NCBI GenBank assembly: GCA_035353995.1
Contig: DAOQAL010000002.1
Coordinates: forward strand, 99,762 to 163,761
Reading direction: 5' to 3'
DNA from: Minisyncoccota bacterium
Lineage (GTDB): Bacteria > Patescibacteriota > Minisyncoccia > Phycocordibacterales > UBA9973
Length of the DNA: 64,000 nt
Every line of letters begins with the position of its first letter. The first letter of the stretch is position 1. Of the stretch, positions 15,824 through 31,422 are shown piece after piece. The notes below the pieces were generated by a model. It was not told the origin of the DNA and did no database searches. It saw only the letters and a list, made by a program, of their open reading frames with translations. A program made the position numbers and the translations under genes.

Positions 15824-16264
15824 ATGAAAATAGAAAGTTTTGCTTTCTCGAATGGAAACAGTATTCCAAGTCGTTTTACTTGTGATGGAGAAAATATAAA
15901 TCCACAACTTTTGTTTAAAAATGTTCCACAGAAAGCAAAAAGTTTAGCATTGATTATGGAAGACCCTGACGCTCCAATTAGAACATGGGTTCATTGGCTA
16001 TTGTGGAATATTTCTCCTGAAATAACTGAAATAAGTCAAGATAGTACTCCAGAAGGTGCTGTTGTTGGATTAAATAGTTCTGATAAAAATGAATATGAAG
16101 GACCATGTCCACCTTCAGGTTCACATCGTTACTTCTTTAAATTATATGCTCTTGATACAATACTTTCTCTTAAAGAAAACACAATGAAGGAAGAATTATT
16201 GAGCGCAATGAAGGGTCATATTGTAGAAAAATCAGAATTTTTTGGAAGATATCAAAGAAAATAA
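15824..16264 (+). CDS. YbhB/YbcL (PEBP, Raf-kinase-inhibitor-like) family protein
   Basis: DPDAP, HW and GxHRY PEBP motifs (EDPDAPIRTWVHW ... GSHRYFFKLYALD). Start is moved to ATG 15824 (MKIESF), preceded by a GGAG. The upstream part of the tracked ORF looks like leader sequence. Confidence 0.7.
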   Translation: MKIESFAFSNGNSIPSRFTCDGENINPQLLFKNVPQKAKSLALIMEDPDAPIRTWVHWLLWNISPEITEISQDSTPEGAVVGLNSSDKNEYEGPCPPSGSHRYFFKLYALDTILSLKENTMKEELLSAMKGHIVEKSEFFGRYQRK

Positions 16265-16276
16265 TCATTTAAAATA

Positions 16277-16318
16277 AAAAACGCCTAGTCGAATTTGATA
16301 TTTGACATGGCGTTTTTT
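16277..16318. terminator. bidirectional intrinsic terminator-like hairpin
   Basis: AAAAACGCC ... GGCGTTTTT inverted repeat between the convergent PEBP gene and the 16356..16823(-) ORF. Confidence 0.45.
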
Positions 16319-16355
16319 CATTAAGACTCTACTACTGTTTTGATATATCAGTCTG

Positions 16356-16823
16356 TCAGTCTCTCCATATGACTCTGCCACATAGATAAAATTTTTCTGG
16401 TCCGGGAAGAAACTTATTTTCATTAAAAAATTTCTCGAGCAGTTCTTTGAATTTTTTTTCTTTCTCTGCATTTATCGGGTTAAAAAAATTATAGATAAAG
16501 TATTCGACAGAGCCGTCCGTGCTGAAACATATTTTAGTCCAGCAGTTTGATAGTCCTCCCCAGCGGAAACCATTTTGTTGTAGGTAGTAGCCAATTTGAT
16601 TAAGGAAATCATTCCTTTTAGGGAATACAACGGAATCGAAATAATTTTTCTGGAATACTGATTTTTTGATGTCAGAATCAGGTATTCCGTTTCGGTAGAC
16701 TTCATCAATTTTTGCAATTGAAAGATTTTTTTCTTCAAGCTCATAGATGCTCAAAGCTTTTCCTTGTGCGAAAAGGGCAATGGAAAAGAGAAAAATCGGA
16801 AAAAACAGAATAATCTTTTTCAT
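16356..16823 (-). CDS. secreted hypothetical protein
   Basis: 155 aa with a clear N-terminal signal peptide (MKKIILFFPIFLFSIALFAQG). No recognisable domain. Confidence 0.4.
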   Translation of the reverse strand: MKKIILFFPIFLFSIALFAQGKALSIYELEEKNLSIAKIDEVYRNGIPDSDIKKSVFQKNYFDSVVFPKRNDFLNQIGYYLQQNGFRWGGLSNCWTKICFSTDGSVEYFIYNFFNPINAEKEKKFKELLEKFFNENKFLPGPEKFYLCGRVIWRD

Positions 16824-16940
16824 AGGCTTCTTTTTATGTTATGGAACAATTTTTTACTTGTTTCAATTTAATCAGATTTATACCAAGTTGTCAAGAATAA
16901 AATTTTTCGTATACAGAGAAATTTTTGTTATACTCAAAAT

Positions 16941-17612
16941 ATGAGTAAATTTTATGTTGTTGCAACTCCAATTGGAAATATGGAAGATATCACACTACGT
17001 GCTATTAGGGTCTTGAAAGAGGTTGATTTAATTTTATGTGAAGACACTAGAACAACAAAAAATCTTTTAGATAAATATGAAATAAAAAATAAAACTATGA
17101 GCTATCACGCTCAAAGTAAATTATCCAAGATGGATAAAATTTTTGAATTATTGAAAGAGGGGAAAAATTTAGCTCTTGTGTCAGATGCAGGCACACCAAC
17201 AATATCTGATCCTGGTGCAATGCTTATTTCTAAAATAAAAGAAAAATTTGATGATGTACAAATAATTCCAATCCCTGGTGCATCTGCTGTTATATCTGCA
17301 TTGTCAGCGTCCGGACTTCCAACTCATGAATTTACATTTATTGGCTTTCTTCCACATAAAAAGGGGAGAGAAACTATATTTAAAGAAATAGCTGAAGCAA
17401 AAAGAACAATTGTTTTTTACGAGTCTACGCATAGAATTTTAAAAACCTTAGAATCTCTAAATAATTTTTGTCCAAATAAAAAAGTTTGTATGGCTAGAGA
17501 AATTACAAAAATTTATGAAGAATTTAAAAATGGAAGTCCAGCTGAACTTTTAGAATATCTAATTAAAAACCCAATCAAACAAAAAGGTGAATTTACTGTT
17601 TTAGTATTTTAA
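16941..17612 (+). CDS. rsmI: 16S rRNA (cytidine1402-2'-O)-methyltransferase
   Basis: N-terminus FYVVATPIGNMEDITLRAIRVLKEVDLILCEDTR is the RsmI/tetrapyrrole-methylase-like signature. Confidence 0.85.
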   Translation: MSKFYVVATPIGNMEDITLRAIRVLKEVDLILCEDTRTTKNLLDKYEIKNKTMSYHAQSKLSKMDKIFELLKEGKNLALVSDAGTPTISDPGAMLISKIKEKFDDVQIIPIPGASAVISALSASGLPTHEFTFIGFLPHKKGRETIFKEIAEAKRTIVFYESTHRILKTLESLNNFCPNKKVCMAREITKIYEEFKNGSPAELLEYLIKNPIKQKGEFTVLVF

Positions 17613-17699
17613 ATTTTGTTATTTATTTATTTTAAGAAGAAAATTGACGATTCTGTCTGCTAGTGGTAAGATATAAGAAAATAGTAATGGTAACATTTT

Positions 17700-17742
17700 G
17701 TTGACTGTCCCAAGAACCTTCTAGATTTTTGGGATAGTCAAC
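17700..17742. promoter_or_regulatory. 14-bp inverted repeat (GTTGACTGTCCCAA / TTGGGATAGTCAAC) upstream of the 17779 ORF
   Basis: Seen directly. One mismatch, 15-nt spacer, and a T-rich tract follows. Candidate operator or terminator. Confidence 0.3.
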
Positions 17743-17778
17743 GAATTTTTGTTTAACCAATTGAAAACTAAATAAAAA

Positions 17779-18168
17779 ATGGCAATTTTAGAAAAAAGAG
17801 AATTTTCATTAGAAGAGAACAAAGAAATCAAGTCAGCATTATTAGGAATTAAATCTCTCGTGATTTTTACGTTGTCTGCTATTGGAAATAATTTTGGTTT
17901 GTCCGATATAGAAAAAGCTAAAACTATTTTTAGTGGATTGAAAAAAATAGAATCAGTTGACACTGAAATGTTGGACAATTTTGATTGGGAAAAAGTTTTT
18001 TTTGGAGAGGATTGGTCTTCTATAATTTTAGTCGCAATAAATTTAAGGTTTGGTTATTATAATCAGAGCAATTTTTGCGAAAAACAATTTAGAACTCTAA
18101 AAAAATATTTTCCTAATTTACAGATTCTGAAAGCTGTGCGAATTAATGAATACGCTGAGTCTAATTAG
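17779..18168 (+). CDS. hypothetical protein
   Basis: 129 aa ORF with no recognisable motif, bounded by the upstream inverted repeat and a downstream terminator. Confidence 0.35.
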   Translation: MAILEKREFSLEENKEIKSALLGIKSLVIFTLSAIGNNFGLSDIEKAKTIFSGLKKIESVDTEMLDNFDWEKVFFGEDWSSIILVAINLRFGYYNQSNFCEKQFRTLKKYFPNLQILKAVRINEYAESN

Positions 18169-18182
18169 ACTCAGCTTTTTTT
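18154..18182. terminator. intrinsic terminator (bidirectional)
   Basis: GCTGAGTCTAATTAGACTCAGC perfect hairpin followed by a T7 run. It lies between convergent genes. Confidence 0.65.
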
Positions 18183-20115
18183 ATAATAAATCTTCAGGAT
18201 CAATATTTATATAAAATGATGGTGGTAGGGAAATTAGTTTATTTAAAAGATTCTGATCTATTGATGTTTTTGAAGAGATTTCTGGTAATGACCATTTATT
18301 TGTATCAACTTTTATTAATATATTAGTGATATATTTGTTTTTTTGTTTTGATATAAAGCCACTAAAAATTTCTGGGTTGTAATCTTTAAAAAATTCACTT
18401 AATGTTTTTTTTGTATTTATTGTATTTTCTTTATCGCCAAAATAAGTTATTTTAATAAAACGCTTATATGGAGGATATCCTAATTTTTTTCTATCTTCCA
18501 ATTCATCTCTTACGAAAGAAAGTAAATTTTCATTTATAATAGATTTTACTGCTAAATCTTTTTCATTTTTTGTTTCTATAATAAATCTTTTTTCAGTTTT
18601 AGAAATTATGGAAGTTAAAATTTGAATAATTTTTTCACTAATTTTAAAATTTGGTATACTCCAAAGCGAATCGAAAGAAGCAATTATTGAAAGTGGTATT
18701 TTATTTTTTAAATAAAATAATGCCATTTCTGTTCCTATAAGTATTGCTCCAGAAGATTCTTCAAAATCATCAACTATTTTTTCTGCTTGTTTTTTTGTTT
18801 TAGCAGATTCTTTATCTAATTTAAATATTTTATTTTCTGGGAAAAAAGTTTTTATTTCTTCGAAAACTGTTTGTGTGCCAATTCCTAAAGGCATTAAATT
18901 CCATCCTCCACAATTTGTACACCTTGTCCTTGGATCCATTTCTTCTCCACATTTATTGCAAACGAACATTCTTTTATTTCCATCTCGTGATAAGTAAAGC
19001 ACTATTGGAGCCATACATTTAGTACAATTTACAGTTTCATTGCAATCTTTGCATATTGTTGTTGTAGCTAAACCTTTTCTTAGGGTAAAAATAAATACAT
19101 TTTCCTTTTTTGCTATAGAGTTTTGTATTTCTTTTAAGGTTTCATTTGTCAAAATTTTAAATTTGCTGTCTGTTTTTGGAGGAAATTCTATTTCTCCATT
19201 AAAATTTAGCCTAAAAGACAAAGGATGTATTTCACTAAAATTATCTATTTCTCTTCTTGCTGTTGTTTCAAAACGTAATAATGAATCTGCTAGTATAAAT
19301 TTTGCATTTATTTTAGAAGCAAAAATTTCTGCAAAAATTCTAAAATCCAAATGGTTTTTACCTATAGTTTTATAAGCACTAGAATTTTCGTTTTCAATTA
19401 TTATTGTTTCTAAATCATAACGTGGAATAGATAAGTAAGGAACTGTACCGAGTATTAGCATTGGATGCTCTGATGTCAATATCTTTTCCATATTCTCAAT
19501 TTGTTTTTTGTGAGTTAGTCCTCCATGTATTGATATTGCAAAATTTTCAATACCTTTGAATAATGATTCAGAAAAAATATCTATATCATGCTCTGTAGGT
19601 AATACTATAAAAATTGATTTTTTCTTTGCAAAAGATTCACGAATTAATGTTTTATAAAAAGATATTCTTTCAGAAAAGGGTGCTTGAAAAAGTAATTTTT
19701 CTGGTTTCATTTTTAATATTTCTTTTTTTTCAAATGCATTTTCTTTTTGTGTTCCATTTATTATTTTAGATATTTTATCGTATCCCTCTTTAAAGGCTGA
19801 TGGTATTACAAAAGAAATCAAATTGCTTTTATTTGATGCAAAATATTTACTAGCTAAAATTGCTGAGTCTAGAAATTCTTTTCTAAAAATAGATATACCT
19901 TTTACGTCTATTATTTTTTTTAAATCAAAATCAAGTTCCTTTATTTTTGATTTTATATTTACAACTTCTTCTGAAGATATAGTAAGACCCAATATTTTTT
20001 TATTGCGTATTGATATGCTTACGATGCTACCATCAGGTATATCTTTTGCTGAAAAATACGTTAAATTATCATTTAAGACTCCTTTTTTAAACGGAATTAC
20101 CGATACAGCTTTCAT
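18181..20115 (-). CDS. priA: primosomal protein N' (PriA)-like, ATPase motifs degenerate
   Basis: C-terminal 4xCxxC zinc-binding region (CKDCNETVNCTKC ... CNKCGEEMDPRTRCTNCGG) and PriA C-terminal domain blocks (ILIGTEMA, LGYPPYKRF). The positions aligning to Walker A and DEEH read PFSERISF and ENEN. Confidence 0.75.
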   Translation of the reverse strand: MKAVSVIPFKKGVLNDNLTYFSAKDIPDGSIVSISIRNKKILGLTISSEEVVNIKSKIKELDFDLKKIIDVKGISIFRKEFLDSAILASKYFASNKSNLISFVIPSAFKEGYDKISKIINGTQKENAFEKKEILKMKPEKLLFQAPFSERISFYKTLIRESFAKKKSIFIVLPTEHDIDIFSESLFKGIENFAISIHGGLTHKKQIENMEKILTSEHPMLILGTVPYLSIPRYDLETIIIENENSSAYKTIGKNHLDFRIFAEIFASKINAKFILADSLLRFETTARREIDNFSEIHPLSFRLNFNGEIEFPPKTDSKFKILTNETLKEIQNSIAKKENVFIFTLRKGLATTTICKDCNETVNCTKCMAPIVLYLSRDGNKRMFVCNKCGEEMDPRTRCTNCGGWNLMPLGIGTQTVFEEIKTFFPENKIFKLDKESAKTKKQAEKIVDDFEESSGAILIGTEMALFYLKNKIPLSIIASFDSLWSIPNFKISEKIIQILTSIISKTEKRFIIETKNEKDLAVKSIINENLLSFVRDELEDRKKLGYPPYKRFIKITYFGDKENTINTKKTLSEFFKDYNPEIFSGFISKQKNKYITNILIKVDTNKWSLPEISSKTSIDQNLLNKLISLPPSFYINIDPEDLL

Positions 20116-20152
20116 GTTTTTATTCTATCATAAATTGTGATATATTTACTTT

Positions 20153-21166
20153 ATGGGAATTTTTTCAAAAAAATTAGGTATAGATTTAGGTACTGCAAAT
20201 ACTCTAGTATTTTTGCCTGGAAAAGGAGTAGTTTTAAATGAACCTTCTGTTGTGGCTGTTTCTGAACAAGATAATAAAATTTTAGCTATTGGTTTTGAGG
20301 CAAAAGATATGGTTGGAAAAACACCTGATTCTATTATCACATATCGTCCAATGAAAGATGGTGTAATAGCAGATTACAGAGTTACAGAAGCGATGTTAAG
20401 GTATTTTATAAATAAAGCATTGGGTAAATTTAATCTTTTTAAACCAGATGTTATGGTTTCTGTTCCCGCAGGAGTTACATCTACTGAAAGAAGAGCTGTT
20501 GTTGAAGCGGCAATTAGAGCGGGGGCAAAAAATGCTTATGTTGTTAAAGAACCAATTTTAGCTGCAATAGGCGCTGGTATTCCTATTCATGAATCAAAAG
20601 GTCATATGATCGTAGATATAGGTGGTGGAACAACAGATGTTGCAGTTATATCGCTTGGTGGAATTGTTGCATCTACTTCTGTTAAATGTGCTGGAAATAA
20701 AATAGATCAAGCAATTGCGGATTATATTAAAAAAACATTCAACTTAGCTATAGGTGATAGAACGGCCGAGGAAGTAAAAATAAAAATTGGTGCAGCAGTT
20801 ATTCTTGAAGAAGAATTAAGAGTAACAATTAAAGGACGTGATTTTATTCAAGGGTTACCACGTTCTGTACAAGTTGGTACAAATGAAATTGTGAAATCTA
20901 TTGATACTGAATTAAAACAAATAATAAAAGCTATAAAAACTGTCCTTCAAGAAACTCCGCCAGAGATTGCATCTGATATAATTGATAATGGTATAACTAT
21001 GACAGGAGGTTCTTCAATGTTAAGAAATCTACCTGATTTGGTTTATAGAAAAACAGGAGTAAAAGCTACATTAGCAGAAGATGCTATATTTTGTGTTGCA
21101 AAAGGAACTGGAATTGCATTGGAACATCTAGATGTTTACAAGAAAACTATTTTAAGTAAAAAATAA
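20153..21166 (+). CDS. mreB: rod shape-determining protein MreB
   Basis: GIDLGTANTLVF and actin-fold phosphate/adenosine motifs. Length 337 aa. Confidence 0.9.
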   Translation: MGIFSKKLGIDLGTANTLVFLPGKGVVLNEPSVVAVSEQDNKILAIGFEAKDMVGKTPDSIITYRPMKDGVIADYRVTEAMLRYFINKALGKFNLFKPDVMVSVPAGVTSTERRAVVEAAIRAGAKNAYVVKEPILAAIGAGIPIHESKGHMIVDIGGGTTDVAVISLGGIVASTSVKCAGNKIDQAIADYIKKTFNLAIGDRTAEEVKIKIGAAVILEEELRVTIKGRDFIQGLPRSVQVGTNEIVKSIDTELKQIIKAIKTVLQETPPEIASDIIDNGITMTGGSSMLRNLPDLVYRKTGVKATLAEDAIFCVAKGTGIALEHLDVYKKTILSKK

Positions 21167-21171
21167 TTTCT

Positions 21172-21897
21172 ATGGAAATAATAGAATATTTTGACAAGGA
21201 TAATTTGCATCATGCTTATTTAATAGAAGGAACAAAGGAGAAAATATTACCTAATATTTTATTTTTTGTTAATAGTCTAGGAATAAAAACTTCTGGAAAC
21301 CCTGATTTTTGTAATTTAGAATTAGATTCTTTTACCATTGAAGATGCAAGAAATTTGAAATCAATGGGATCACAAAATGGTTTTTCTAATAATAAAAAAA
21401 TTTTTATTATATCGGCAAATAATTTTTTAATTGAAGCGCAGAATACATTACTTAAAATTTTTGAAGAACCAATAGAAAATACTCATTTTTTCTTAATCGT
21501 ACCAGATGCAAATATTTTTTTACCTACTTTGTTTTCTAGATTTTATTTTATAAAAACAAAACCAGATCTAAATGAAGAAATTAAAATAGCTGAAGAATTT
21601 ATATCACTTTCAAAAAAAGACAGAATTGCATTTCTTAAGGATAATTTAAAAGAAGAAGAATATGATGACGATTTCGAGAAATTATCAAAAGATTCAGTGA
21701 GGTCAAAAGCAATAAGATTTTTAAATGCCCTTGAAGTTGTTTTGCACAATAAATATTTTTTAAATAAAAATTTTAAAGAAGATGCAGATATCAATTTTTT
21801 TGATCAAATTTTAAAAGTACGGGCATATTTAAATCAACCAGGTTCTTCAATGAAAAACCTTATGGATTCAATTGCATTAAATATCCCCAGTTTCTAG
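21172..21897 (+). CDS. holB: DNA polymerase III delta' subunit-like
   Basis: HAYLIEG, KKIFIISANNFLIEAQNTLLKIFEEP and TLFSRF blocks align with HolB/DnaX clamp-loader regions. There is no Walker A, as expected for delta'. Confidence 0.6.
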   Translation: MEIIEYFDKDNLHHAYLIEGTKEKILPNILFFVNSLGIKTSGNPDFCNLELDSFTIEDARNLKSMGSQNGFSNNKKIFIISANNFLIEAQNTLLKIFEEPIENTHFFLIVPDANIFLPTLFSRFYFIKTKPDLNEEIKIAEEFISLSKKDRIAFLKDNLKEEEYDDDFEKLSKDSVRSKAIRFLNALEVVLHNKYFLNKNFKEDADINFFDQILKVRAYLNQPGSSMKNLMDSIALNIPSF

Positions 21898-21925
21898 ATT
21901 TATAATTAAATGCTACAATACAAAT

Positions 21926-22477
21926 ATGCAATATAATTTTTCAAATTTAAAAAATGATTTAAAAAAAGTGGAAGAATTTTTATCAAAAGAGTACAGTCAA
22001 TTAAGTACAGGTAGGGCTTCTATAATGGTATTAGATTCTGTATCTGTAGAATCATATGGCTCTTTTCAACCTATAAAAAATGTTGCATCAATTTCAGTTG
22101 AAGATCCAAAAACATTACGTATTGCACCTTGGGATAAATCTCAAATAAAAGCAATTGAAAAAGCAATAACAGTAGCTGATTTAGGATTATCTCTCGCTAC
22201 TGATGAAATTGGTATAAGAGTAATATTTCCTCAACTAACTACAGAAACAAGACAAAGAACAGTAAAAGTTCTAAAAGATAAATTAGAAGAATCTAGAATA
22301 TCAGTTAGGAGAGAAAGGGGAGTTGTTTGGGATTCTATTCAAACAGATGAGAAAAATGGGAAAATGACAGAAGATGAAAAAATGAGAGCAAAAGATGAAT
22401 TACAGAAAATAATAGACGAGACAAATAAAAATTTAGAAACAATTTTTGAGAAAAAAGAAAAAGAAGTAATGGGTTAA
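21926..22477 (+). CDS. frr: ribosome recycling factor
   Basis: 183 aa. N-terminal and C-terminal helical regions match RRF (LSTGRASIMVLDSV ... ). Confidence 0.85.
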   Translation: MQYNFSNLKNDLKKVEEFLSKEYSQLSTGRASIMVLDSVSVESYGSFQPIKNVASISVEDPKTLRIAPWDKSQIKAIEKAITVADLGLSLATDEIGIRVIFPQLTTETRQRTVKVLKDKLEESRISVRRERGVVWDSIQTDEKNGKMTEDEKMRAKDELQKIIDETNKNLETIFEKKEKEVMG

Positions 22478-22484
22478 ATAATAA

Positions 22485-23621
22485 ATGAACATATTTATAT
22501 TTATAATAATTTTATTGGTTTTAGTTTTAGTCCATGAATTTGGGCATTTTTTTACTGCAAAAAGTTTTGGAATAAGAGTTGATGAATTTGGTTTTGGTTT
22601 TCCTCCAAAATTATTTAGTTTTAAAAAAGGGGAGACAGAATATTCTATTAATGCTTTGCCGTTTGGAGGTTTTGTAAAAATTTTTGGTGAAAATGTAGAT
22701 GATGCTGATTTAGCAGAAGTTAATGCTTTAGATAAAAAAGATACTTTAGAAAAAAAAGAAATCTCTAGAAGTTTAATAAGTAAACCAAGATATCAACAAG
22801 CATTAGTTATGTTTGCTGGTATTTTTGCAAATTTTGTTCTTGCATGGATTTTATTTTCTTTTGGTTTTATAACTGGTCTTCCAACATCCGTTAGTTCAGA
22901 ATCAAAAGGTTACGCTTTAGAAGATATAAATCTTGTTGTTGTTTCTGTGCAAGAAGGATCGCCTGCTGAAATTTCTGGTTTAATATCTGGAGATAAAATA
23001 ATTTCTGTAAATTCTGGCGAAGATGTTTTGTCTGATATAAATACAGAAAGTTTTAAATCTTTCATTCTAAATCACCCAAATCAAGAAATAGATATTGGCT
23101 ATCTTCGTGGAAAGGATAAAAATATAAACACTACTTCAGTTATACCTAAGACGGAAAATGCTGGTGAAAAGCCCATGATAGGTATTTCTATGGATCAAAT
23201 TGGAAAGGCTAAATTGCCTTTTTTAAAGGCTTTTGGGGAAGGATTAAGACTTGATTGGACTGTCACAAAAGGTACCGTTGTAGGGCTTTATACGCTTATT
23301 GCGGACGGTGTAAGGGGAAAAGGAGACATGTCTAGCGTATCTGGACCAGTTGGTATGGTTGGAATAGTTGGCGATGCCTATAAATTTGGTTTTGCTTACC
23401 TTTTGTCTTTTGCTGCTTTAATATCTGTAAATTTGGCAGTAGTAAACTTTATACCGTTTCCAGCATTAGATGGTGGAAGACTATTGTTTTTGTTAATTGA
23501 AAAAATTAAAGGTTCTCCGATGAATCCCAAAATTGCAAATACTATGAATGCAATTGGTTTTGCAATATTGATAATTCTTATGCTTTTGGTCACTTTTAGT
23601 GACATAACTAAACTATTTTAG
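22485..23621 (+). CDS. rseP: RIP metalloprotease RseP (site-2 protease)
   Basis: HEFGHFF zinc motif in TM1, a central PDZ domain and a C-terminal LDGG motif. Confidence 0.8.
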   Translation: MNIFIFIIILLVLVLVHEFGHFFTAKSFGIRVDEFGFGFPPKLFSFKKGETEYSINALPFGGFVKIFGENVDDADLAEVNALDKKDTLEKKEISRSLISKPRYQQALVMFAGIFANFVLAWILFSFGFITGLPTSVSSESKGYALEDINLVVVSVQEGSPAEISGLISGDKIISVNSGEDVLSDINTESFKSFILNHPNQEIDIGYLRGKDKNINTTSVIPKTENAGEKPMIGISMDQIGKAKLPFLKAFGEGLRLDWTVTKGTVVGLYTLIADGVRGKGDMSSVSGPVGMVGIVGDAYKFGFAYLLSFAALISVNLAVVNFIPFPALDGGRLLFLLIEKIKGSPMNPKIANTMNAIGFAILIILMLLVTFSDITKLF

Positions 23622-23662
23622 GTGAATTTCTAAGTTTTTTTAATTTCTGTTATACTCTAAAT

Positions 23663-24628
23663 ATGATTAAGAAAAAATTAAAAATCGGGATACTTTTGGG
23701 TGGCCGATCCGCAGAGCATGAAGTATCTATTATTTCTGCTAAGAACGTTATTAAAGCACTCGATAAAGATAAATATAAAATATTTCCTATAAAAATAAAT
23801 AAAGACGGAAAATTTAATTTTGAAAAATTAAAAGGTTTAGACGTTATCTTTCCAGTTCTTCATGGGCCATTTGGCGAAGATGGAAGCATGCAAGGATTTT
23901 TAAAAATTTTGAATTTGCCTTTTGTTGGTCCTAGTGTATTAGGTTCTGCAGTTGGTATGGATAAAGATGTTATGAAGAGACTTTTTAGAGATGCTGGAAT
24001 CCCTATTGGAAAATTTGTTACGGCTAGAATTCAAGATCAAATTTCTTTTAAAGATGTTTCAAAAAAATTAGGATTGCCTATGTTTATAAAGCCGGCTAAT
24101 CTTGGTTCTTCTGTTGGAATACATAAAATAAAAAATGAAAAAGAATTTATTGCAGGATTAAAAGACGCATTTTGTTATGATACAAAAATTGTTATTGAAG
24201 AAAATATTGATGGTAGGGAAATAGAATGTTCTGTTCTTGGTAATGAAAATCCTATAGCATCAACGCCAGGAGAAATAATTTCCAATGCAGATTTTTATTC
24301 TTATGATTCAAAATATATAGACAATAAATCTATTTGTAAAATTCCAGCAGATTTACCCAAAGACGTTATTAAAAGAGTTAAGGATTTAGCTATAGAAGTT
24401 TTTAAAGTTTTAAATTGTGAGGGCATGGGACGTGTTGATGTTTTTGTTAAGAAAAATGGCGAAGTTATTGTAAATGAAATAAATACTCTTCCCGGTTTTA
24501 CATCTATAAGCATGTATCCAAAAATGTGGGAGTCTGACGGGTTACCCATTACAAAACTTTTAGACAAATTGATCGATCTTGGTATGGAAAGATTTGAAAG
24601 AGAAAAAAAATTAAAATCAGTAAAATAA
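23663..24628 (+). CDS. ddl: D-alanine--D-alanine ligase
   Basis: KIGILLGGRSAEHEVS N-terminus and an ATP-grasp C-terminal half. Length 321 aa. Confidence 0.85.
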   Translation: MIKKKLKIGILLGGRSAEHEVSIISAKNVIKALDKDKYKIFPIKINKDGKFNFEKLKGLDVIFPVLHGPFGEDGSMQGFLKILNLPFVGPSVLGSAVGMDKDVMKRLFRDAGIPIGKFVTARIQDQISFKDVSKKLGLPMFIKPANLGSSVGIHKIKNEKEFIAGLKDAFCYDTKIVIEENIDGREIECSVLGNENPIASTPGEIISNADFYSYDSKYIDNKSICKIPADLPKDVIKRVKDLAIEVFKVLNCEGMGRVDVFVKKNGEVIVNEINTLPGFTSISMYPKMWESDGLPITKLLDKLIDLGMERFEREKKLKSVK

Positions 24629-24636
24629 TAAAAATT

Positions 24637-25776
24637 ATGACTAAAAAAAATGAACCTATTTCTTATATAGAGCTATCAAAAAGTAATTTAATTCATAATT
24701 TTAAAGAATTAAAAAAAATTACAAAAAAGGGTGTAGAAATTGCAGCAGTTATAAAAGGTAATGCTTATGGTCATGGGCAAAATGAAATTGCAAAAATTCT
24801 TGATCCATTTGTTGATTATTTTCAAGTAAATAGCCTATTAGAACTTGAACTTTTGCGAAAAGTTACGAAAAAGAAAATATTTTTATTGGGTTATGTTCAA
24901 AAAGAAGATTTAAAAAAAGCCATAAAACTTGGTTGTATTTTGTCTATTTTTTCTTTAGAACAATTAAAAGATGTTGAAAAAGTTTCAGGTTTATTAAAAG
25001 TTAAACAAGAAATTCATATTCCTATAGATGCTTATCTTGGAAGAGAAGGTTTTTTGGAAAGTGAATGGAAAAATTCTTTTGAAGAAGTAAAAAAATGTAA
25101 AAATGTAAAGCTTGGTGGAATTTATGCTCATTTTGCAAACATTGAAGATACCAATAATTTTACTCATGCAAGAAAACAAATAAATAAATATAAACATGCA
25201 TTAGATATTGCTGGCAATCTTGGTTTTGAAAAAATTAAAACACATATATCAGCAACTTCAGGTCTTTTGGTTTATGAAAAAGATAAAGGTCCAAATTCCG
25301 TAATTCGTTTAGGTATAGGAATTTATGGTATGTGGCCTTCAGAACATATAAAATATTTATATAAAAATAAATTTGAGCTTAAACCAGTAATGGAGTGGAA
25401 AACAAAAATAGCACAAATTAAAACTTTGCCTGCCGGACATACAGTTGGTTATGGGCTTACTTACATGACATATAATCCTACAAAAATAGCTGTCATACCT
25501 ATTGGATATTCTGATGGCTTTGATAGAGGACTTTCAAATAAAGGAGAAGTTTTAATTCATGGAACTAGATGCAAAATTCTCGGCAGAGTAGCAATGAATA
25601 TGTTTGTTGTTGATGTCACACATTTAGTAGATGTTAAAGCGGAAGATGAAGTCATTCTTATTGGAAAGCAAGGAAAAGAACAAATAACAGCAGAAGAAAT
25701 TGCTGATAAATTGGAAACTATAAATTACGAAGTAACTACACGTATTAATTCATTACTTCCAAGAGTAATCATTTAA
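24637..25776 (+). CDS. alr: alanine racemase
   Basis: PLP-binding AVIKGNAYGHG motif. Length 379 aa. Confidence 0.85.
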   Translation: MTKKNEPISYIELSKSNLIHNFKELKKITKKGVEIAAVIKGNAYGHGQNEIAKILDPFVDYFQVNSLLELELLRKVTKKKIFLLGYVQKEDLKKAIKLGCILSIFSLEQLKDVEKVSGLLKVKQEIHIPIDAYLGREGFLESEWKNSFEEVKKCKNVKLGGIYAHFANIEDTNNFTHARKQINKYKHALDIAGNLGFEKIKTHISATSGLLVYEKDKGPNSVIRLGIGIYGMWPSEHIKYLYKNKFELKPVMEWKTKIAQIKTLPAGHTVGYGLTYMTYNPTKIAVIPIGYSDGFDRGLSNKGEVLIHGTRCKILGRVAMNMFVVDVTHLVDVKAEDEVILIGKQGKEQITAEEIADKLETINYEVTTRINSLLPRVII

Positions 25777-25814
25777 AGGTTGCTTTTTAAGGTTTTTTGT
25801 ATTAATATATAAAT

Positions 25815-25973
25815 ATGTCACAAGATAGACTTATAAAACTTGCTTGCGGGACTTGTAAAAGAATTAATTATTGGTCAAGTAAAAATAAAAAGCTTGTAAC
25901 CAAGAAAATTGAACTTAAAAAGTATTGCAAATGGTGCAAAAAGCAAACTAAGCACAAGGAAATCAAAAAATAG
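25815..25973 (+). CDS. rpmG: 50S ribosomal protein L33 (52 aa; below the ORF-track length cutoff)
   Basis: Hand-translated as MSQDRLIKLACGTCKRINYWSSKNKKLVTKKIELKKYCKWCKKQTKHKEIKK. Two CxxC pairs and the overall pattern match L33. Confidence 0.8.
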   Translation: MSQDRLIKLACGTCKRINYWSSKNKKLVTKKIELKKYCKWCKKQTKHKEIKK

Positions 25974-26144
25974 TTTTTATTATTTTTTTTGATATGTTAC
26001 AATAGCTCTTGCAGTAAATGTTTACTGCTTGTTCTTTATACTTTAGGAGTTCGTCCTTAAGAACGAATTCCAAGAGATATGGAACTTTTTTAATTTTCCT
26101 TATCTCTATCCAGCTCTATCTTTTTACTAAGATAGGGTTTGGAT

Positions 26145-26215
26145 GGGCGATTAGTTAAGTGGTATAACTACGGTCTCCAAAACCGTTGTCGGGAGTTCGA
26201 TTCTCTCATCGCCCG
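26145..26215 (+). tRNA. tRNA-Trp (anticodon CCA)
   Basis: Cloverleaf folded by hand. Acceptor GGGCGAT/ATCGCCC, anticodon stem ACGGT/ACCGT with loop CTCCAAA, and T-arm GGGAG-TTCGATT-CTCTC. The 3' CCA is not encoded. Confidence 0.85.
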
Positions 26216-26251
26216 CTACAACAAGCACAGGACAGCTTAATGCTGTCCGAA
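26211..26251. repeat. direct repeat copy 1 (tRNA-Trp 3' end plus downstream GGACAG-loop-CTGTCC hairpin)
   Basis: GCCCGCTACAACAAGCACAGGACAGCTTAATGCTGTCCGA recurs at 27291-27335 with 2 mismatches. Att-like. Confidence 0.55.
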
Positions 26252-26263
26252 AGCGTACTCGCG

Positions 26264-26358
26264 TTTCTCTCATCGCCCGCCTTCGCTCGCAGTAGCGAGC
26301 TACGGCGGGTAAAACCCGTTAGTAGTTCCGCGAAGGCGAGAAGGTATCATGTATTAAC
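26264..26358. other. partial duplicate of tRNA-Trp T-arm/acceptor (TCTCTCATCGCCCGCC) followed by GC-rich nested hairpins
   Basis: Sixteen nt identical to tRNA positions 26203-26218, then CCCGCC...GGCGGG enclosing GCTCGC-AGTA-GCGAGC, then CCTTCGC...GCGAAGG. G+C is far above the local background. Confidence 0.5.
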
Positions 26359-26430
26359 GACCCCATAGGTCTTGCCTCTGGGGTACTCTGGGGTAACTCT
26401 CGACCCCATAGGTCTTGCCTCTGGGGTACA
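26359..26430. repeat. island palindrome family, copies 1-2 (tandem)
   Basis: (C)GACCCCATAGGTCTTGCCTCTGGGGTA repeated twice back to back. Copy 1 carries an internal CTCTGGGGTA duplication. Confidence 0.7.
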
Positions 26431-26566
26431 GAAGGCCCGCTACACCTTGATTTATTTTCTAACTATGTTATTATGCAGATAATGATAGTTTTTTGACATT
26501 CGGTTTTATTGGTTTCCAAACGAGATAAATAATTGTCTTTTGTGGAAACCTTTAAAACCATAAAAA

Positions 26567-27160
26567 ATGAAAAGAATATTTTCAACATTAAGTCCAAAAT
26601 ATGTTTTGGTCTCTTTCTCCAAAGACGGAAAAAGAAAAAGAATAATTCTAAAAGAATTTGGAGTCTGTAGTATTGGCACATATGAAAACATAAAAGCCAT
26701 AGAAAGTGCCCTTACGGATTCCGGTGTTTATCTGACTGACTTGGTCAAGAAAACTATTTCTAGCACAGCTTTTAAATTTACAAGACAAAAAAAAGTTCAA
26801 CTATTCATTCAGATTTCAGCCTCTGATCTTGGCTTCAAAAATGGTGGTAGGTATAAGGATATTATTAACAGCATATTAGGTGCTGTGGTGATATTACGAG
26901 GGAGAAAATACATAGTAGAGTTTTGTCTTCCCGAAGTTGCCTTGTATTTACGTCTACAGTATAAAAATCAACCAGTAGAACCAATTGAAGTTGAAGAGCG
27001 AGTTGATGTTGTTATGGAGCCGATAAAAGGAGAAAGGAATGATTATGTTTTACGCCTAGTGCACGATACAGAAGGAATAGCTTTAGCAGGACATCCTGCT
27101 CATGAAAATTGTCCAAGATATTCCGGTGATAAATTTATTTTTTCTCTGCGTGCCAAGTAA
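26567..27160 (+). CDS. hypothetical protein (sole gene in the direct-repeat-bounded 1.08 kb unit)
   Basis: 197 aa ORF with no recognised motif. G+C is higher than host genes. Confidence 0.4.
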   Translation: MKRIFSTLSPKYVLVSFSKDGKRKRIILKEFGVCSIGTYENIKAIESALTDSGVYLTDLVKKTISSTAFKFTRQKKVQLFIQISASDLGFKNGGRYKDIINSILGAVVILRGRKYIVEFCLPEVALYLRLQYKNQPVEPIEVEERVDVVMEPIKGERNDYVLRLVHDTEGIALAGHPAHENCPRYSGDKFIFSLRAK

Positions 27161-27174
27161 TGGCTAGGTTCTAA

Positions 27175-27210
27175 GGGGTTGTTATTTTTTTACGATGACA
27201 ACCCTTTTTT
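27175..27210 (+). terminator. intrinsic terminator
   Basis: GGGTTGT ... ACAACCC stem followed by a T6 run, directly after the 26567 ORF stop. Confidence 0.5.
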
Positions 27211-27290
27211 ATTTCCCCAAACCAATAAATTCCCCAATACTAACCATAACTAAAGGATAGTATTTCAAAAGTTCTGAAATTCCTATACTA

Positions 27291-27335
27291 AGCCCGCTAC
27301 AACAAGCACAGGACAGATTAATGCTGTCCGATAAG
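27291..27335. repeat. direct repeat copy 2 (att-like)
   Basis: AGCCCGCTACAACAAGCACAGGACAGATTAATGCTGTCCGATAAG. Compare with 26211-26251. Confidence 0.55.
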
Positions 27336-27364
27336 TAGTTTTTAATTATGATATAATTTAATTT

Positions 27365-27982
27365 ATGAAACTTATAATTTTTGATTGGTCTGGAGTAATA
27401 AAAGATGGATTGGAGAGCAACTTGTGGATTTGTAATAAAATATTTGAAAAATTCGGAGTACCAACTATTTCACTTGAGGAATTTAAAGAAAATTATGAAC
27501 TTCCTTACATGAATTTTTTTAAGAAATATATTCCTAGTCTAACTCTTGAAGAAGAACGAATTATATATAAAAAATATATATTTGATATAAATTGTCCAAA
27601 ATCTAAATCGTGCTTAGGTATTATTGAATTAATTAAGAAACTAAAAGAAAATAATTATCACTTAGCAGTGGTAAGCTCTGATTTTCCAGGAACAATTTTT
27701 GCAGAAATAAAAGAGTATGGGTTGGAAAATATTTTTGATGATGTAATTACAGGTATATATAATAAACTCGAAGGTGTTAATAATGTTATAAAAAAAAGAA
27801 ATTTTGATTTAAGTAATACTTTTTTTGTTGGTGATACTAATCATGAAATAGAAGTGGCAAGACAGGCAGGTATAAAAAGCATAGCAGTAACTTGGGGGTT
27901 TTGTTCTGAGCAAAAACTTAAATTAGAAAATCCAGATTATCTTGTGCATAATTCAAATGAATTAGAAAAGATTCTTTTGTAA
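27365..27982 (+). CDS. HAD-superfamily hydrolase-like protein
   Basis: N-terminal IIFDWSGVI (motif I with DWSG rather than DxDG) and GDTNHEIEVARQAG (motif IV-like). Length 205 aa. Confidence 0.45.
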   Translation: MKLIIFDWSGVIKDGLESNLWICNKIFEKFGVPTISLEEFKENYELPYMNFFKKYIPSLTLEEERIIYKKYIFDINCPKSKSCLGIIELIKKLKENNYHLAVVSSDFPGTIFAEIKEYGLENIFDDVITGIYNKLEGVNNVIKKRNFDLSNTFFVGDTNHEIEVARQAGIKSIAVTWGFCSEQKLKLENPDYLVHNSNELEKILL

Positions 27983-28053
27983 ATCTTGTGTACATTGTGC
28001 ACTTTATAGATAAATTAAATCTACAATACTTATCCCCAAAAAAACAAAAATAA

Positions 28054-28080
28054 GCCCCCGCAAAAAAATTTTGCGGAGGC
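28054..28080. terminator. bidirectional terminator hairpin
   Basis: GCCCCCGCAAAA-AAA-TTTTGCGGAGGC, a 12-bp stem with one mismatch, flanked by A/T runs. It lies between convergent genes. Confidence 0.5.
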
Positions 28081-28142
28081 TTAAGTGTTTAAGAGTTAAA
28101 ATAATCTGGGAGATTATTTTAAGGTCCTCAAGTAATCAAGTA

Positions 28143-28943
28143 TCACTTCCTAGCGACCGACAAACCGAGATCGCTACTGCGGTGACTATCCCAGTAGCCG
28201 CCGACGTTCAGACCCCCGCCGTCAAAGAAGCCGACGTTGACGTGATCGCCGCCCGAGTCGAGGCTTGATGTGCGGACATAAATTCCGCCAAACAAGTAAA
28301 CGTCTCTGACTGCTTTGTAGGTTGTGATTGCCCAGGTGAATTCAGCAGAATTCGGTACAGTTTCAACATCGGAAATCAGGGTTTGCTGTTCTTCCCAGTT
28401 TTTAGAAGTTGATTCGGGGACAGGGTTCTTGCGAATCATGTACCATTTTGTTTCAACTTTGTCTTTCTGTGAAAAATTCTGATCAGCATACCATCCACCA
28501 TCTTTTGAGTAGAAGTAACCATTTTTCATGGTACGAATCTCAAGAAGAGACATTGGACGGTTGGGACCAGCGACAAGCATGTAACTGTTGTCACGGCACC
28601 ATTCCAGAATTTCTTGTGCAGGAACTGTTTCGCCGAACTTGGCAAGCTGTTCTTCGGTGTAAGTAACTCCTTTACGTGATTTCATCACGTCTTCAGGAGA
28701 AATGAAATCCTTACCGAGAATTGTGCGAACCAGTTCATAATCTGGAGCTTTCATGGAGAAACGCTTGATACCTGTAAGCAGGTAAGCAGCGAATCCAGGA
28801 TTCTCATTCAGAACCTGTGCACTTTCTTCTGTCAGTCCAGCCTTATTGTATTGGGCACGAAACGATTCGGTAGCTCTCTGTCCTTTCGGACTGTCTGCGG
28901 TTACCAGTGCAGACGTGTTCAATGACTTTTTCATCGACATCAT
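28143..28943 (-). CDS. hypothetical protein, compositionally foreign (~50% G+C)
   Basis: 266 aa ORF. The DNA is conspicuously GC-rich (e.g. 28150-28280) against an AT-rich genome. It has a Gly-rich C-terminus and no recognised domain. Confidence 0.45.
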   Translation of the reverse strand: MMSMKKSLNTSALVTADSPKGQRATESFRAQYNKAGLTEESAQVLNENPGFAAYLLTGIKRFSMKAPDYELVRTILGKDFISPEDVMKSRKGVTYTEEQLAKFGETVPAQEILEWCRDNSYMLVAGPNRPMSLLEIRTMKNGYFYSKDGGWYADQNFSQKDKVETKWYMIRKNPVPESTSKNWEEQQTLISDVETVPNSAEFTWAITTYKAVRDVYLFGGIYVRTSSLDSGGDHVNVGFFDGGGLNVGGYWDSHRSSDLGLSVARK

Positions 28944-28990
28944 CCTTTATTGGTTTTACCGAAATCGCTCGGCAACGGCTTTTCTCGTTA

Positions 28991-29043
28991 ATGAGATGAG
29001 CTTTTTAAGTCCTATAATATAAGGCATAAAAAGCTCATCTCAT
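28991..29043. promoter_or_regulatory. perfect 17-bp inverted repeat (ATGAGATGAGCTTTTTA / TAAAAAGCTCATCTCAT) enclosing a TATAAT box
   Basis: Seen directly, immediately upstream of the 28143..28943(-) gene. Candidate operator or hairpin. Confidence 0.4.
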
Positions 29044-29116
29044 GGAAGTGATATTTTAAAAGAACTCTTTCTATTATATCATATATAATGCTTTTGTCAA
29101 TAAACTATTTTGCATT

Positions 29117-29159
29117 ACCCCATAGGTCACCCCATAGGTCTTGCCTCTGGGGTAACTCT
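29117..29159. repeat. island palindrome family, copy 3 (with a 12-nt partial duplicate in front)
   Basis: ACCCCATAGGTC + ACCCCATAGGTCTTGCCTCTGGGGTAACTCT. Confidence 0.7.
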
Positions 29160-29303
29160 TTACTTTTAATAACATTCGTGGTATTGTACCATTACAATGG
29201 TTCTTTGAAATTGAACATGATTATTACTTGTTTGGATTACCTTGCACTTCCTTTGGGAGTTTGAAGTAATCCAAATGAGTATAAACAATTAAAGACAATA
29301 GTT

Positions 29304-29633
29304 ATGGAAAAATTAAAAAAATACCGACTAGGTAATCAGCCTACTGAGTATGAACTTGTTACAGAATATTTAGGGTGGCTTCCTGAAGACGCATCAAGTT
29401 GGTGGGACGTGTTCCAAATAATGGTTTCTTCTTCTGAAATTACAGGTAAAGAAATAACCATTACTAATCCTGAAAAAAATAAAAAAATTACAATTATTAT
29501 TGACCATAGAATTGTAAAAGATGCATTTCCCATGTCTTTTTTCGTGGAGGAGAGAGCAAAAAATTGGTATGATTTTTGTATTGTATCAAGTAAGGATAAA
29601 CCATCTGAAAAATTTATTATTCCACTTCACTAA
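29304..29633 (+). CDS. hypothetical protein
   Basis: 109 aa ORF with no recognised motif. It is preceded by a 10-bp inverted repeat (TTTGGATTAC ... GTAATCCAAA, 29231-29274). Confidence 0.35.
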   Translation: MEKLKKYRLGNQPTEYELVTEYLGWLPEDASSWWDVFQIMVSSSEITGKEITITNPEKNKKITIIIDHRIVKDAFPMSFFVEERAKNWYDFCIVSSKDKPSEKFIIPLH

Positions 29634-29688
29634 GTAGGGGGTATCCGAGCTTGAAGAGCTGGCATTTTTGTGTCAGCTTTTTTTATTT

Positions 29689-29720
29689 CTACATAGGTCT
29701 TGCCTCTGGGGTAACGGAGT
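29689..29720. repeat. island palindrome family, copy 4 (5' arm degenerate)
   Basis: CTACATAGGTCTTGCCTCTGGGGTAACGGAG. Confidence 0.6.
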
Positions 29721-29808
29721 ATTTTTCCATACTTGACTTTATCAATTTAAAGATGTATTATTAAACTGATATTTTATATAGTTCTTAACATTTAAAAAGG
29801 AGGTTTAA

Positions 29809-30408
29809 GTGAAAGATTTATTTGTCTGGCTTACCGTGATCACAATGACCACGTTTATTATTATTTATGTATACCAGATTTATAAGCATAAAATTTTTCC
29901 AGCTCTGTCTACTTGGATTATATTTCTTTGTGGAGTTGGCCTAAGTTTTGTTACTTATATTATTTCAGAAAAAAATGATTTAAGTTCTGGCGTATTAAAT
30001 ACCATAGATCTCCTGAACGTAGTAGTTGTAACTATCGCAATAATTCTTTGGGGTAAAAGAAGTCTACATCTTAAGCCTTTTGAAAAATGGTATTTAGTTG
30101 CTGTTGGTTTAATTATTTTTTATGGAATAATAACTGGTGATGCATGGAGTTCAAATATCTTAACTCAAGTATTAATTAGTGTTGGATATTTTCCAACCAT
30201 ACACGGTTTATTAAAAAGTAGGGTAAACACAGAATCATTCATTGGGTGGGGAATTAACTTGCTTGTTAGCTTTTTTGCCTTATACCCAGCATCGGTTAAT
30301 GGTAACCTGCTTGCAATAATTTATGCAACCAGAGCAGCCGTCCTTATCTCTGTATTATTAATAATAATGGTTTATTGTGAATTGACTAAAAAGAAAAAAC
30401 TAGCCTAG
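29809..30408 (+). CDS. polytopic membrane protein with GTG start and strong SD
   Basis: 199 aa with about 6 TM helices. AAGGAGGT lies 7 nt upstream of GTG, which is atypical for this genome. It is homologous to the 61313..61912(-) ORF (shared YQI.K, W, and Y..T/RKK tail). Confidence 0.5.
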   Translation: MKDLFVWLTVITMTTFIIIYVYQIYKHKIFPALSTWIIFLCGVGLSFVTYIISEKNDLSSGVLNTIDLLNVVVVTIAIILWGKRSLHLKPFEKWYLVAVGLIIFYGIITGDAWSSNILTQVLISVGYFPTIHGLLKSRVNTESFIGWGINLLVSFFALYPASVNGNLLAIIYATRAAVLISVLLIIMVYCELTKKKKLA

Positions 30409-30457
30409 TACCGAAAGGGAAAGGCTTTTTTTATTTTATTCTTATGTCTTTGATACT

Positions 30458-30494
30458 GAGTTACCCCATAGGTCTTGCCTCTGGGGTAACTAGG
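30458..30494. repeat. island palindrome family, copy 5 (longest: 14-bp arms)
   Basis: GAGTTACCCCATAGGTCTTGCCTCTGGGGTAACTAGG. Confidence 0.7.
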
Positions 30495-30538
30495 TTTTAC
30501 TTGAACAATCTTTTTTCTTCCTTTTCAAAAGTTGTCAG

Positions 30539-30575
30539 AGCCAACCCCATAGGTCTTGCCTATGGGGTTCTTACC
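30539..30575. repeat. island palindrome family, copy 6 (perfect variant)
   Basis: GCCAACCCCATAGG-TCTTG-CCTATGGGGTTCTTACC. Eleven-bp perfect arms with CTCTGGGG changed to CTATGGGG. Confidence 0.7.
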
Positions 30576-30708: not shown

Positions 30709-31422
30709 ATGAAAAAAATCGTTTTTATTTTTGCAATGATGATGACATTCTCATCTTTGCAATTTGTGTACGCACAGGAAAATGTCGTACAGAACTGGAA
30801 TTTCCAAGAAGATTCGGACAATGACGGACAAGGAGATTATTGGACTTCACTTTGCTCTCCGTCTGTTTTTTCATGGAGCATCGTATACGGTGTTCAGTAT
30901 GTAAAGTGCGATTCAGTGTATTGTTACTCCGGGTCATTGGTGCAATATTTTCCGGATTCAATAATGCCTGGAACGTATATGCTTGAATTTGATACGTATT
31001 GTAGCAGAATTCTATGGCCATTTGTTGTACTACATGATTACAAACTGTCTTTCATCGGCACGGTTGTGCCGTCGACATGGCAACACTACGAAATTACATT
31101 TACTTCGTTAGCTTGGATAAGCGGTGTCGGTTTTTTAGCTGAGAGTGCAATTTCTCAAATAAAAATGGACAATGTAAAGTTGTATTTGCTATATGGAGTA
31201 GGATGTGAAAAACAAAAAGTAAAGCAATTAAAATTCTACCCGAATCCGGTCACTGATTACGTAAATATTTATTCATACGAAAATAAAAGAATCAGTATCT
31301 ACGATGTCTCCGGAACAAATTTTGGTCATTTTGATTTATTAAATGGTCAAAACAAGATCAATATGAGTTTTCTACCGTCTGGAATTTACATATTAGACGG
31401 ACAGAAAGTTCTGAAGAAATAG
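30709..31422 (+). CDS. secreted Cys-rich protein with Bacteroidetes-type T9SS (Por) C-terminal sorting domain
   Basis: Signal peptide ending ...VYAQ. The C-terminus KFYPNPVTDYVNIYSYENKRISIYDVSGTNF ... LPSGIYILDGQKVLKK matches the T9SS CTD consensus. G+C is elevated and there is no SD. Confidence 0.6.
   Translation: MKKIVFIFAMMMTFSSLQFVYAQENVVQNWNFQEDSDNDGQGDYWTSLCSPSVFSWSIVYGVQYVKCDSVYCYSGSLVQYFPDSIMPGTYMLEFDTYCSRILWPFVVLHDYKLSFIGTVVPSTWQHYEITFTSLAWISGVGFLAESAISQIKMDNVKLYLLYGVGCEKQKVKQLKFYPNPVTDYVNIYSYENKRISIYDVSGTNFGHFDLLNGQNKINMSFLPSGIYILDGQKVLKK

Follow-up and report, generated by a model that had tools for sequence, protein, structure and literature searches.

An anonymous G+C-rich gene in a Patescibacteria genome is a target gene of the diversity-generating retroelement type, on a probably mobile cassette

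Diversity-generating retroelements (DGRs) vary a protein through an RNA that contains a template repeat (TR): the RNA is copied by the DGR reverse transcriptase (RT) together with Avd, the template adenines are miscopied, and the resulting complementary DNA (cDNA) is written into the 3' end of a target gene in place of the variable region (VR). DGRs of Patescibacteria were reportedly treated by Paul and colleagues in 2017, a work cited in a later survey. That survey (Roux et al. 2021, PMC8144416) describes 'clade 2' DGRs of Patescibacteria (Candidate Phyla Radiation, CPR) with their targets, and states that the targets of a Patescibacteria-restricted DGR clade lack recognisable Pfam, transmembrane (TM) or signal domains. 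Here we analyzed a 64,000-nucleotide (nt) stretch of a Minisyncoccota genome (assembly GCA_035353995.1, contig DAOQAL010000002.1, positions 99,762 to 163,761; hereafter the window, whose coordinates are used throughout) and in it the open reading frame (ORF) 28143-28943 on the minus strand. An earlier note, made from the sequence alone, had singled this ORF out as a G+C-rich gene of unknown function, recently acquired from a high-GC donor. We find that it is a DGR target (variable-protein) gene, of a kind already known and of the Patescibacteria type. The fuller reading, in which the gene lies on a laterally mobile cassette and the window holds an orphan or static copy of it, is in our judgement highly probable.

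The target gene, its variable region and its fold

Counted from the first ATG, the open frame encodes 266 amino acids (aa). A start at the third ATG (28934) gives 263 aa and is preferred both by public annotation and by the spacing to the ribosome-binding site (RBS). Exact-sequence look-up found no match for the 266-aa and 265-aa versions and matched the 263-aa version, which is identical to GenBank HNW71862.1/HPT18117.1, labelled 'hypothetical protein'. A word-indexed search of 5.8 billion proteins returned 283 homologues of ~265 aa with 56-91% identity, nearly all from Patescibacteria metagenomes; the few that bear any name are again only 'hypothetical protein'. An exhaustive profile search extended the family to 2,325 representatives at 50% identity, with a common core at about residues 65-265. 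Pfam holds no family for the window protein (E up to 1), nor, beyond noise, for 80 family members; no significant hidden Markov model match to PF03781 (FGE-sulfatase), DUF1566 or Lectin_C was obtained for the window protein, and PHROGs and NCBIfam gave no match. The homologue search proposed in the earlier note thus produced relatives in number, but sequence libraries alone gave no identity; genomic context did. A phage origin was rejected, as the 2.9 million viral contigs of IMG/VR contained no relative of the window protein.

In the related locus L001, the target gene is followed by a TR, by bAvd on the opposite strand and by an RVT_1 reverse transcriptase. The final 118 nt of this target gene recur 471 nt downstream with 86% identity, and the mismatches between the VR and the downstream copy sit at adenines of that copy, the TR, either all of them or, by the lower count, 16 of 17. 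A TR, a VR and adenine-specific mutagenesis together define a DGR. We surveyed 79 related loci, 76 of them from one-genome-per-species contigs, and in about 35 of them a TR was present and both RT and Avd lay no more than 10 kb away; at the TRs of these loci typically ~14-18 of 16-19 mismatches lie at TR adenines. The closest relatives of the window protein likewise have Avd and/or RT beside them: target, Avd and RT stand together for P0004 (88% identity), the target is accompanied by an Avd fragment broken by an insertion sequence for P0003, and P0007 (locus L004) has a pair of targets with a TR, a fragment of an RT and a complete Avd/RT. Furthermore, a serine recombinase is often found near the target gene in relatives. 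The earlier note had recognized no motif in the protein and left it without a function, and this did not hold: the Gly-rich C-terminus is a DGR VR on a C-type-lectin fold. The two coding features concerned are:

28149-28266, minus strand: VR, 118 nt, encoding SLDSGGDHVNVGFFDGGGLNVGGYWDSHRSSDLGLSVAR, with 14 hypervariable codons
28146-28541, minus strand: domain of C-type-lectin/FGE-like fold, C-terminal, about residues 135-266

The family alignment is strongly conserved except for ~14 codons within the last 40 residues, at which entropy peaks, and relatives whose identity to the window protein is ~94% in the rest of the sequence reach only 21-36% at the hypervariable positions. We searched with a pattern made from the window VR, with N at the presumed adenine-templated positions. 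This retrieved the metagenome contig L084, in which a TR encoding the Asn-rich NLDSDGNHVNVGNFDDKGLNVNNNWDSNRNSNLGLSVAR adjoins Avd and RT. The window VR differs from the L084 TR at 17 of 118 positions, with 16 mismatches at the 34 TR adenines and 1 among the 84 other positions (Fisher p = 1.3e-9). Twelve of the 16 adenine-site changes are A to G, and the sole non-adenine mismatch is C to T, in the 3' homology block. The window VR thus carries the signature of adenine mutagenesis. The Gly-rich tail is accounted for by AAC-to-GGC and similar changes at TR adenines, and the 61% G+C of the last (3') 100 nt of the gene largely by A-to-G changes, together with a TR scaffold that avoids adenine elsewhere.

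A structure model of residues 66-266, made with 129 diverse family representatives, reached a predicted local distance difference test score (pLDDT) of 98 and a predicted template modelling score (pTM) of 0.94. Comparison of the fold with known structures gave the following scores:

Bd2740 C-terminal domain: 9.2
Lcl C-terminal domain: 8.6
pFGE: 8.4
SenA: 8.2
PvdO: 8.1
TvpA (DGR variable protein): 7.6 (20% identity)
Mtd (DGR variable protein): 6.8
TaqVP (DGR variable protein): 5.8
dozens of animal C-type lectins: 5-6

In this model the VR is displayed on a C-type-lectin fold, and the ~14 codons randomized by a DGR would lie on its ligand-binding face. No TM or hydrophobic segment and no signal peptide was found in the window protein. 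At its other end the protein starts with a ~35-residue segment, MKKSLNTSALVTADSPKGQRATESFRAQYNKAGL (residues 1-34, 28844-28943, minus strand), that is at least 90% conserved in the 80 closest family members and missing from more distant ones; its first 20 residues are modelled at low confidence (pLDDT 31-56), and the segment may be a conserved docking or export peptide.

Two observations concern the DGR loci of relatives. L004 carries tandem targets, each with the same leader hairpin and VR type and with one TR in common; an RT fragment lies next to the targets and the full Avd/RT 9 kb off. Its intervals are:

L004 8984-9742: tandem target
L004 10001-10807: tandem target
L004 11872-12309: listed alongside the tandem targets

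L004 also carries serine recombinase and ParB-methyltransferase genes, both of which are present in L001 too, and these common genes suggest a larger mobile element. In many related DGR loci (L011, L015, L016, L017, L019, L024 and L032) the match to the RT is split at about residue 182 and the containing ORF is only ~200-230 aa long; a frameshift, a stop or an insertion appears to break the RT frame at this point.

Cassette boundaries, base composition and probable lateral movement

The claim that a G+C-rich ORF is embedded in ~30% G+C DNA was borne out: ORF 28143-28943 has 46.7% G+C versus 30.3% for the window, and it is the most G+C-rich 801-nt stretch of the window, with 0.04% of such stretches reaching its value. 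Its codon usage is a strong outlier as well, with a G+C content at third codon positions (GC3) of 0.468 compared to a mean of 0.168 in 51 other long ORFs (z = 4.8). The third-position bases of the host are A 0.445, C 0.054, G 0.083 and T 0.418, and those of the non-VR part of the ORF are A 0.27, C 0.22, G 0.19 and T 0.31. That the gene is 'far more GC-rich than anything else' in the window was correct as to rank but overstated as to degree, as a Lyase_1 (PF00206) gene encoding 496 aa (51954-53444, minus strand), the second compositional outlier of the window, has 42% G+C and a GC3 of 0.425. The neighbours of this gene are a tRNA-Gln (51211-51284) and a HEPN-domain ORF (50055-50675), and it may be another acquired gene.

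DNA homology to relatives (~85%) extends from 29101 to 28124 or 28041, and the flanks are unrelated. The homologous DNA corresponds to a promoter-to-terminator unit of ~1,060 bp (28041-29101) consisting of promoter, leader, ORF with VR, post-VR hairpin and terminator. In the order of transcription, its noncoding features are:

29100-29073, minus strand: sigma-70 promoter TTGACA-16 nt-(TG)TATAAT, 12/12 match, extended -10; upstream limit of homology
28992-29043, minus strand: leader hairpin (the palindrome of the earlier note), 22 bp; conserved across 25 loci, where it shows compensatory changes and conserved G.U pairs
28957-28974, minus strand: small leader hairpin CCGAG...YUCGG, immediately preceding the RBS AAAGGA (~28944-28950)
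28090-28128, minus strand: position of the post-VR hairpin, family consensus GAGGR-CTTGT-YCCTC
28051-28083, minus strand: intrinsic terminator, 15-bp stem then T-run, homologous in related cassettes; cassette end at ~28041

The leader is ~120 nt long (28957-29066) and has homologous leaders in 24 loci. Over the 25 loci, 95.4% of the cells of the predicted structure are paired and 12 of 27 pairs show compensatory changes; none of 500 shuffles reached the observed values, and slid controls paired at 52% or less. Its conserved G.U pairs indicate that the palindrome is an RNA hairpin on the sense strand; for this reason, and because it is positioned downstream of the promoter, a DNA operator or promoter element was rejected. 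The 'palindromic promoter element' reported earlier is therefore a true palindrome but a covarying hairpin of the leader, while the gene's own terminator, reported alongside it, was found as claimed. The 22-bp hairpin has 10 covarying pairs in addition to the conserved G.U pairs, and in the minimum-free-energy fold the 5' end of the leader, GUUCUUU, is able to pair with the RBS region. Rfam has no family for the leader or the 3' region and returned only sub-threshold matches to miRNA-like hairpins. Downstream of the gene, the post-VR hairpin, ~25 nt after the stop, is family-wide and covarying, and the terminator is likewise conserved family-wide. The window copy of the post-VR hairpin has kept the 5' arm GAGGA, its 3' arm is degraded, and its loop has received an AT-rich insertion of ~28 nt that forms a 12-bp stem of its own (28096-28122).

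The excess of G+C is family-wide. Outside the VR, the gene was richer in G+C than its flanks in 55 of 56 loci, by a mean of 13.4 points, and in 24 DGR loci the mean G+C was 0.567 for the target (non-VR) and 0.649 for the VR, compared to 0.395 for RT, 0.413 for Avd and 0.43 for the flanks. The family norm of non-VR GC3 is 0.62-0.82, and is 0.62 even in hosts of 33% G+C. A first explanation to be weighed is that the excess is kept by selection, through high expression and C- or G-ending codons, or by GC-biased repair from cDNA integration, without transfer. A perfect consensus promoter and a structured leader would fit such a gene, as would a G+C step that coincides with the ORF borders, a GC3 that climbs from 0.60 to 0.84 toward the VR, a target G+C that tracks that of the host (slope 0.36) at a constant positive offset, and RTs that are of similar protein divergence and yet host-like in GC3. 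However, there are cassettes with 93-97% identity in DNA that have 0 nt of flank in common, in flanks differing by up to 18.5 G+C points (L009 versus L012), while their RTs are only 64-70% identical, which is hard to obtain without transfer. Nor is there an adenine-specific depletion (A3 ~ T3), so that adenine loss as the source of the high G+C of the whole gene was ruled out and holds for the VR/TR scaffold alone; moreover, the window copy has drifted far toward the composition of its host. As a full account we regard selection or repair as improbable, although either may contribute to the G+C excess.

The data are explained most simply if the target cassette, with a G+C content of its own of ~57%, passes laterally from one Patescibacteria host to another, independently of the RT. 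Nucleotide identities of target and adjacent RT are uncorrelated (rho 0.00, 91 pairs), and between L014 and L017 the target is 95.2% and the RT 66.1% identical. The self-contained ~1,060-bp unit would move across Patescibacteria apart from the RT, and such movement would account for a G+C content above that of nearly all its hosts. Of the earlier note's proposal, lateral origin and foreign composition are upheld by the codon-usage outlier, the location in a variable region, the confinement of homology to the cassette and the unrelated flanks; close homologues at syntenic positions, which it had named as evidence to the contrary, were not seen, the flanks being unrelated and the region missing from the nearest available relative. 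An ordinary recent transfer from a high-G+C organism, in which the composition is that of the donor and the gene has no known function, can draw on the strength of the outlier, on a non-syntenic place adjoining a tRNA and on a family cassette of typically ~57% G+C. Still, all identified hosts are Patescibacteria, mostly of 32-50% G+C, no genome of a high-GC donor came to light, the excess is confined to the target ORF and absent from the neighbouring RT and Avd, and the gene now has a function as a DGR variable protein. The nearest relatives (85% at the nucleotide level) in particular speak against both 'recent' and 'high-GC donor': the sub-lineage that comprises the window, L003-L005 and L083-L086, whose members are ~85% identical to one another, has 47-50% G+C in hosts of 31-34% G+C, and the non-VR GC3 of the window gene is 0.42, well under the family norm. 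Because of this composition, the sub-lineage has probably resided in low-GC hosts for some time, and we consider recent acquisition from a high-GC donor very improbable.

Status of the window copy and its surroundings

We searched the 64-kb window with the RT and Avd of relatives by tblastn (best E = 0.2) and for a TR-like repeat of the VR by blastn-short (word size 7), and neither RT or Avd nor a TR was found. The identical 263-aa protein, VR allele included, is present on 13 contigs from at least four datasets, and four contigs from four datasets are 100% identical to the window across the gene, save one mismatch in one contig. For a sister backbone in the same 90% cluster, two VR alleles were found, distinct at five hypervariable positions, along with a single difference in the backbone; ongoing diversification, that is several VR alleles on one backbone, was not seen for the window allele in the available assemblies. 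An RT candidate, P0509, has the same source pattern as the window Alr; it was rejected, as its loci (L090-L094) have no DNA in common with the window and carry a different target. Since TR, Avd and RT are missing from the 64 kb and the VR allele is invariant in all available assemblies, the window copy is most likely an orphan that is currently static, or at the most a remote target in rare use. Its product would then be a soluble binding protein of fixed specificity.

The copy could also be fully functional and be diversified in trans by a DGR elsewhere in the genome. The cis elements appear to be retained in full, namely an intact ORF, the VR scaffold, a putative IMH-like 3' homology block and, in the place of the post-VR hairpin, a hairpin of some kind; among relatives, a single TR can serve two targets (L004), and DGRs with remote targets are documented (PMC8144416). 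One public contig (GCA_964524305.1, CAZGCM010000002.1) matches 14637-28568 of the window without a difference and ends inside the gene, which might indicate a second copy. However, short contigs with the window allele end at the leader and terminator hairpins, which explains such breaks without a second copy, and for the same reason we did not rely on the many ~1-kb contigs as a sign of multiple copies. The invariance of the VR on 13 contigs of several datasets, the C-to-T difference from the best TR in the 3' homology block and the remodelling of the post-VR hairpin by an insertion further argue against active use, in addition to the lack of RT, Avd and TR in 64 kb. We therefore regard an active remote target as unlikely.

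Several points weigh against our reading of the locus as an orphan or static DGR target on a mobile cassette. Transfer is deduced from identity set against context, to which extreme constraint at synonymous sites is an alternative. The TR of the adenine test is heterologous, as it comes from L084, possibly not a related organism. The identity of VR alleles is that of assembly consensus sequences, in which minority alleles are invisible, and some of the datasets are possibly related samples. The failure to find a cognate TR or RT applies to 64 kb, and DGRs can act on remote targets. With regard to the fold, Foldseek returned the same fold class at weak E-values (at least 0.03), and neither the single protein nor the profile matched a PDB sequence (HMMER), so that the fold lacks support from Pfam, NCBIfam or PDB sequences. 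Lastly, the usual 'surface ligand-binding' role is unproven for a protein that has neither a signal peptide nor a TM segment.

The genes around the cassette are Patescibacteria housekeeping genes (MreB, RseP, Ddl, Alr, RRF, HolB, MltG, MiaA, MurA, ParB), and the window Alr is 100% identical to an Alr annotated in a metagenome-assembled genome of a 'Candidatus Paceibacterota bacterium'. The cassette lies within a ~4.4-kb variable region directly after Alr-L33-tRNA-Trp. The nearest available relative (Alr 76% identical, same G+C) has kept Alr-L33-tRNA-Trp and carries wholly different genes downstream. The landmarks of this region are:

26145-26216, plus strand: tRNA-Trp, at the edge of the cassette-bearing variable region
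26361, 26404, 29130, 29689, 30464 and 30545 (span 26361-30569), plus strand: copies of the repeat CCCCATAGGTCTTGCCTCTGGGGTA

The 3' 15 nt of the tRNA-Trp, TCTCTCATCGCCCGC (26202-26216), are duplicated 50 nt downstream at 26266-26280, in the manner of an attachment (att) site remnant; no integrase domain was found in the ORFs of the variable region. The 25-nt repeat CCCCATAGGTCTTGCCTCTGGGGTA forms a hairpin, and its six copies are all intergenic and fall within ~4.2 kb after the tRNA-Trp. It occurs nowhere else in the window and is missing from the other fetched loci, and the flanks of its copies are not conserved. At the edge of the variable region, a 237-aa ORF (30709-31422, plus strand; GC3 0.37) matches Por_Secre_tail, the C-terminal sorting domain of the type IX secretion system (E = 6e-10), which is unexpected in a Patescibacteria genome. 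Lastly, P0516, a member of the 90% cluster of the window protein, has lost its stop and reads on for ~85 residues, the last of which, ...GIEPPTAVLETEVIPLN, are a tRNA gene translated in antisense; this copy therefore also abuts a tRNA gene (compare window ORF 26151-26273).

Implications and comparison with described systems

An anonymous compositional outlier, a 'hypothetical protein' in GenBank, is thus now an identified element, a variable-protein gene that belongs to the DGR clade restricted to Patescibacteria, and a large family that has no Pfam model is defined by its core of ~200 aa and 2,325 representatives, with a predicted C-type-lectin structure modelled at high confidence. The protein itself is soluble and without an export signal, and its N-terminal peptide is very conserved. 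Base composition alone was enough to single out a DGR target that has no RT nearby; standard DGR finders start from the RT and miss such copies. What may be new here is the target-specific G+C excess with the decoupling of target and RT, together with the conserved leader RNA hairpin; the two surveys of DGRs that we checked for GC content, PMC8144416 among them, do not mention a family-wide G+C excess of targets or their decoupling from the RT. These data suggest that target modules and the diversification machinery have separate evolutionary histories in ultra-small bacteria. We put forward tentatively, as a possibility to which we give slightly less than even weight, that a mobile target module of ~57% G+C, bearing a previously undescribed, covarying leader RNA hairpin, is swapped among widely differing hosts apart from RT and Avd and that orphans arise as by-products. 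If so, DGR 'receptor' modules would be swapped like cassettes and orphan copies would be by-products of this traffic, and a target-specific G+C excess would be a general signature with which targets, remote and orphan ones included, could be found in low-GC genomes.

Among described systems, the FGE-sulfatase, EgtB, SenA and PvdO enzymes (fold class of PF03781) are related to the window protein by fold, but the latter has no PF03781 match and no evidence of catalytic residues; its FGE-like fold serves as a variable scaffold. It is also unlike Mtd of Bordetella phage BPP-1 (PDB 1YU0; compare TaqVP, 5VF4), which is a phage tail-fibre trimer. With TvpA of Treponema denticola (PDB 2Y3C) it shares the FGE-type C-type-lectin fold, a VR that forms the C-terminal face and, by inspection, the ending '...G-hydrophobic-x-V/L-A-R'. 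The two differ in that HMMER detects no sequence homology between them and the N-terminal helical region is different; moreover, TvpA is a lipoprotein with a signal sequence, which the window protein lacks. The closest likeness is to the CPR 'clade 2' DGRs, with which the window gene and its relatives agree in host group, in the order of target, TR, bAvd (on the opposite strand) and RT found in relatives, in the adenine specificity of TR/VR mismatches, and in a protein without Pfam, TM or signal domains. What sets the window copy apart from these DGRs is that RT, Avd and TR are missing from its neighbourhood and that its VR allele is fixed in the available assemblies.

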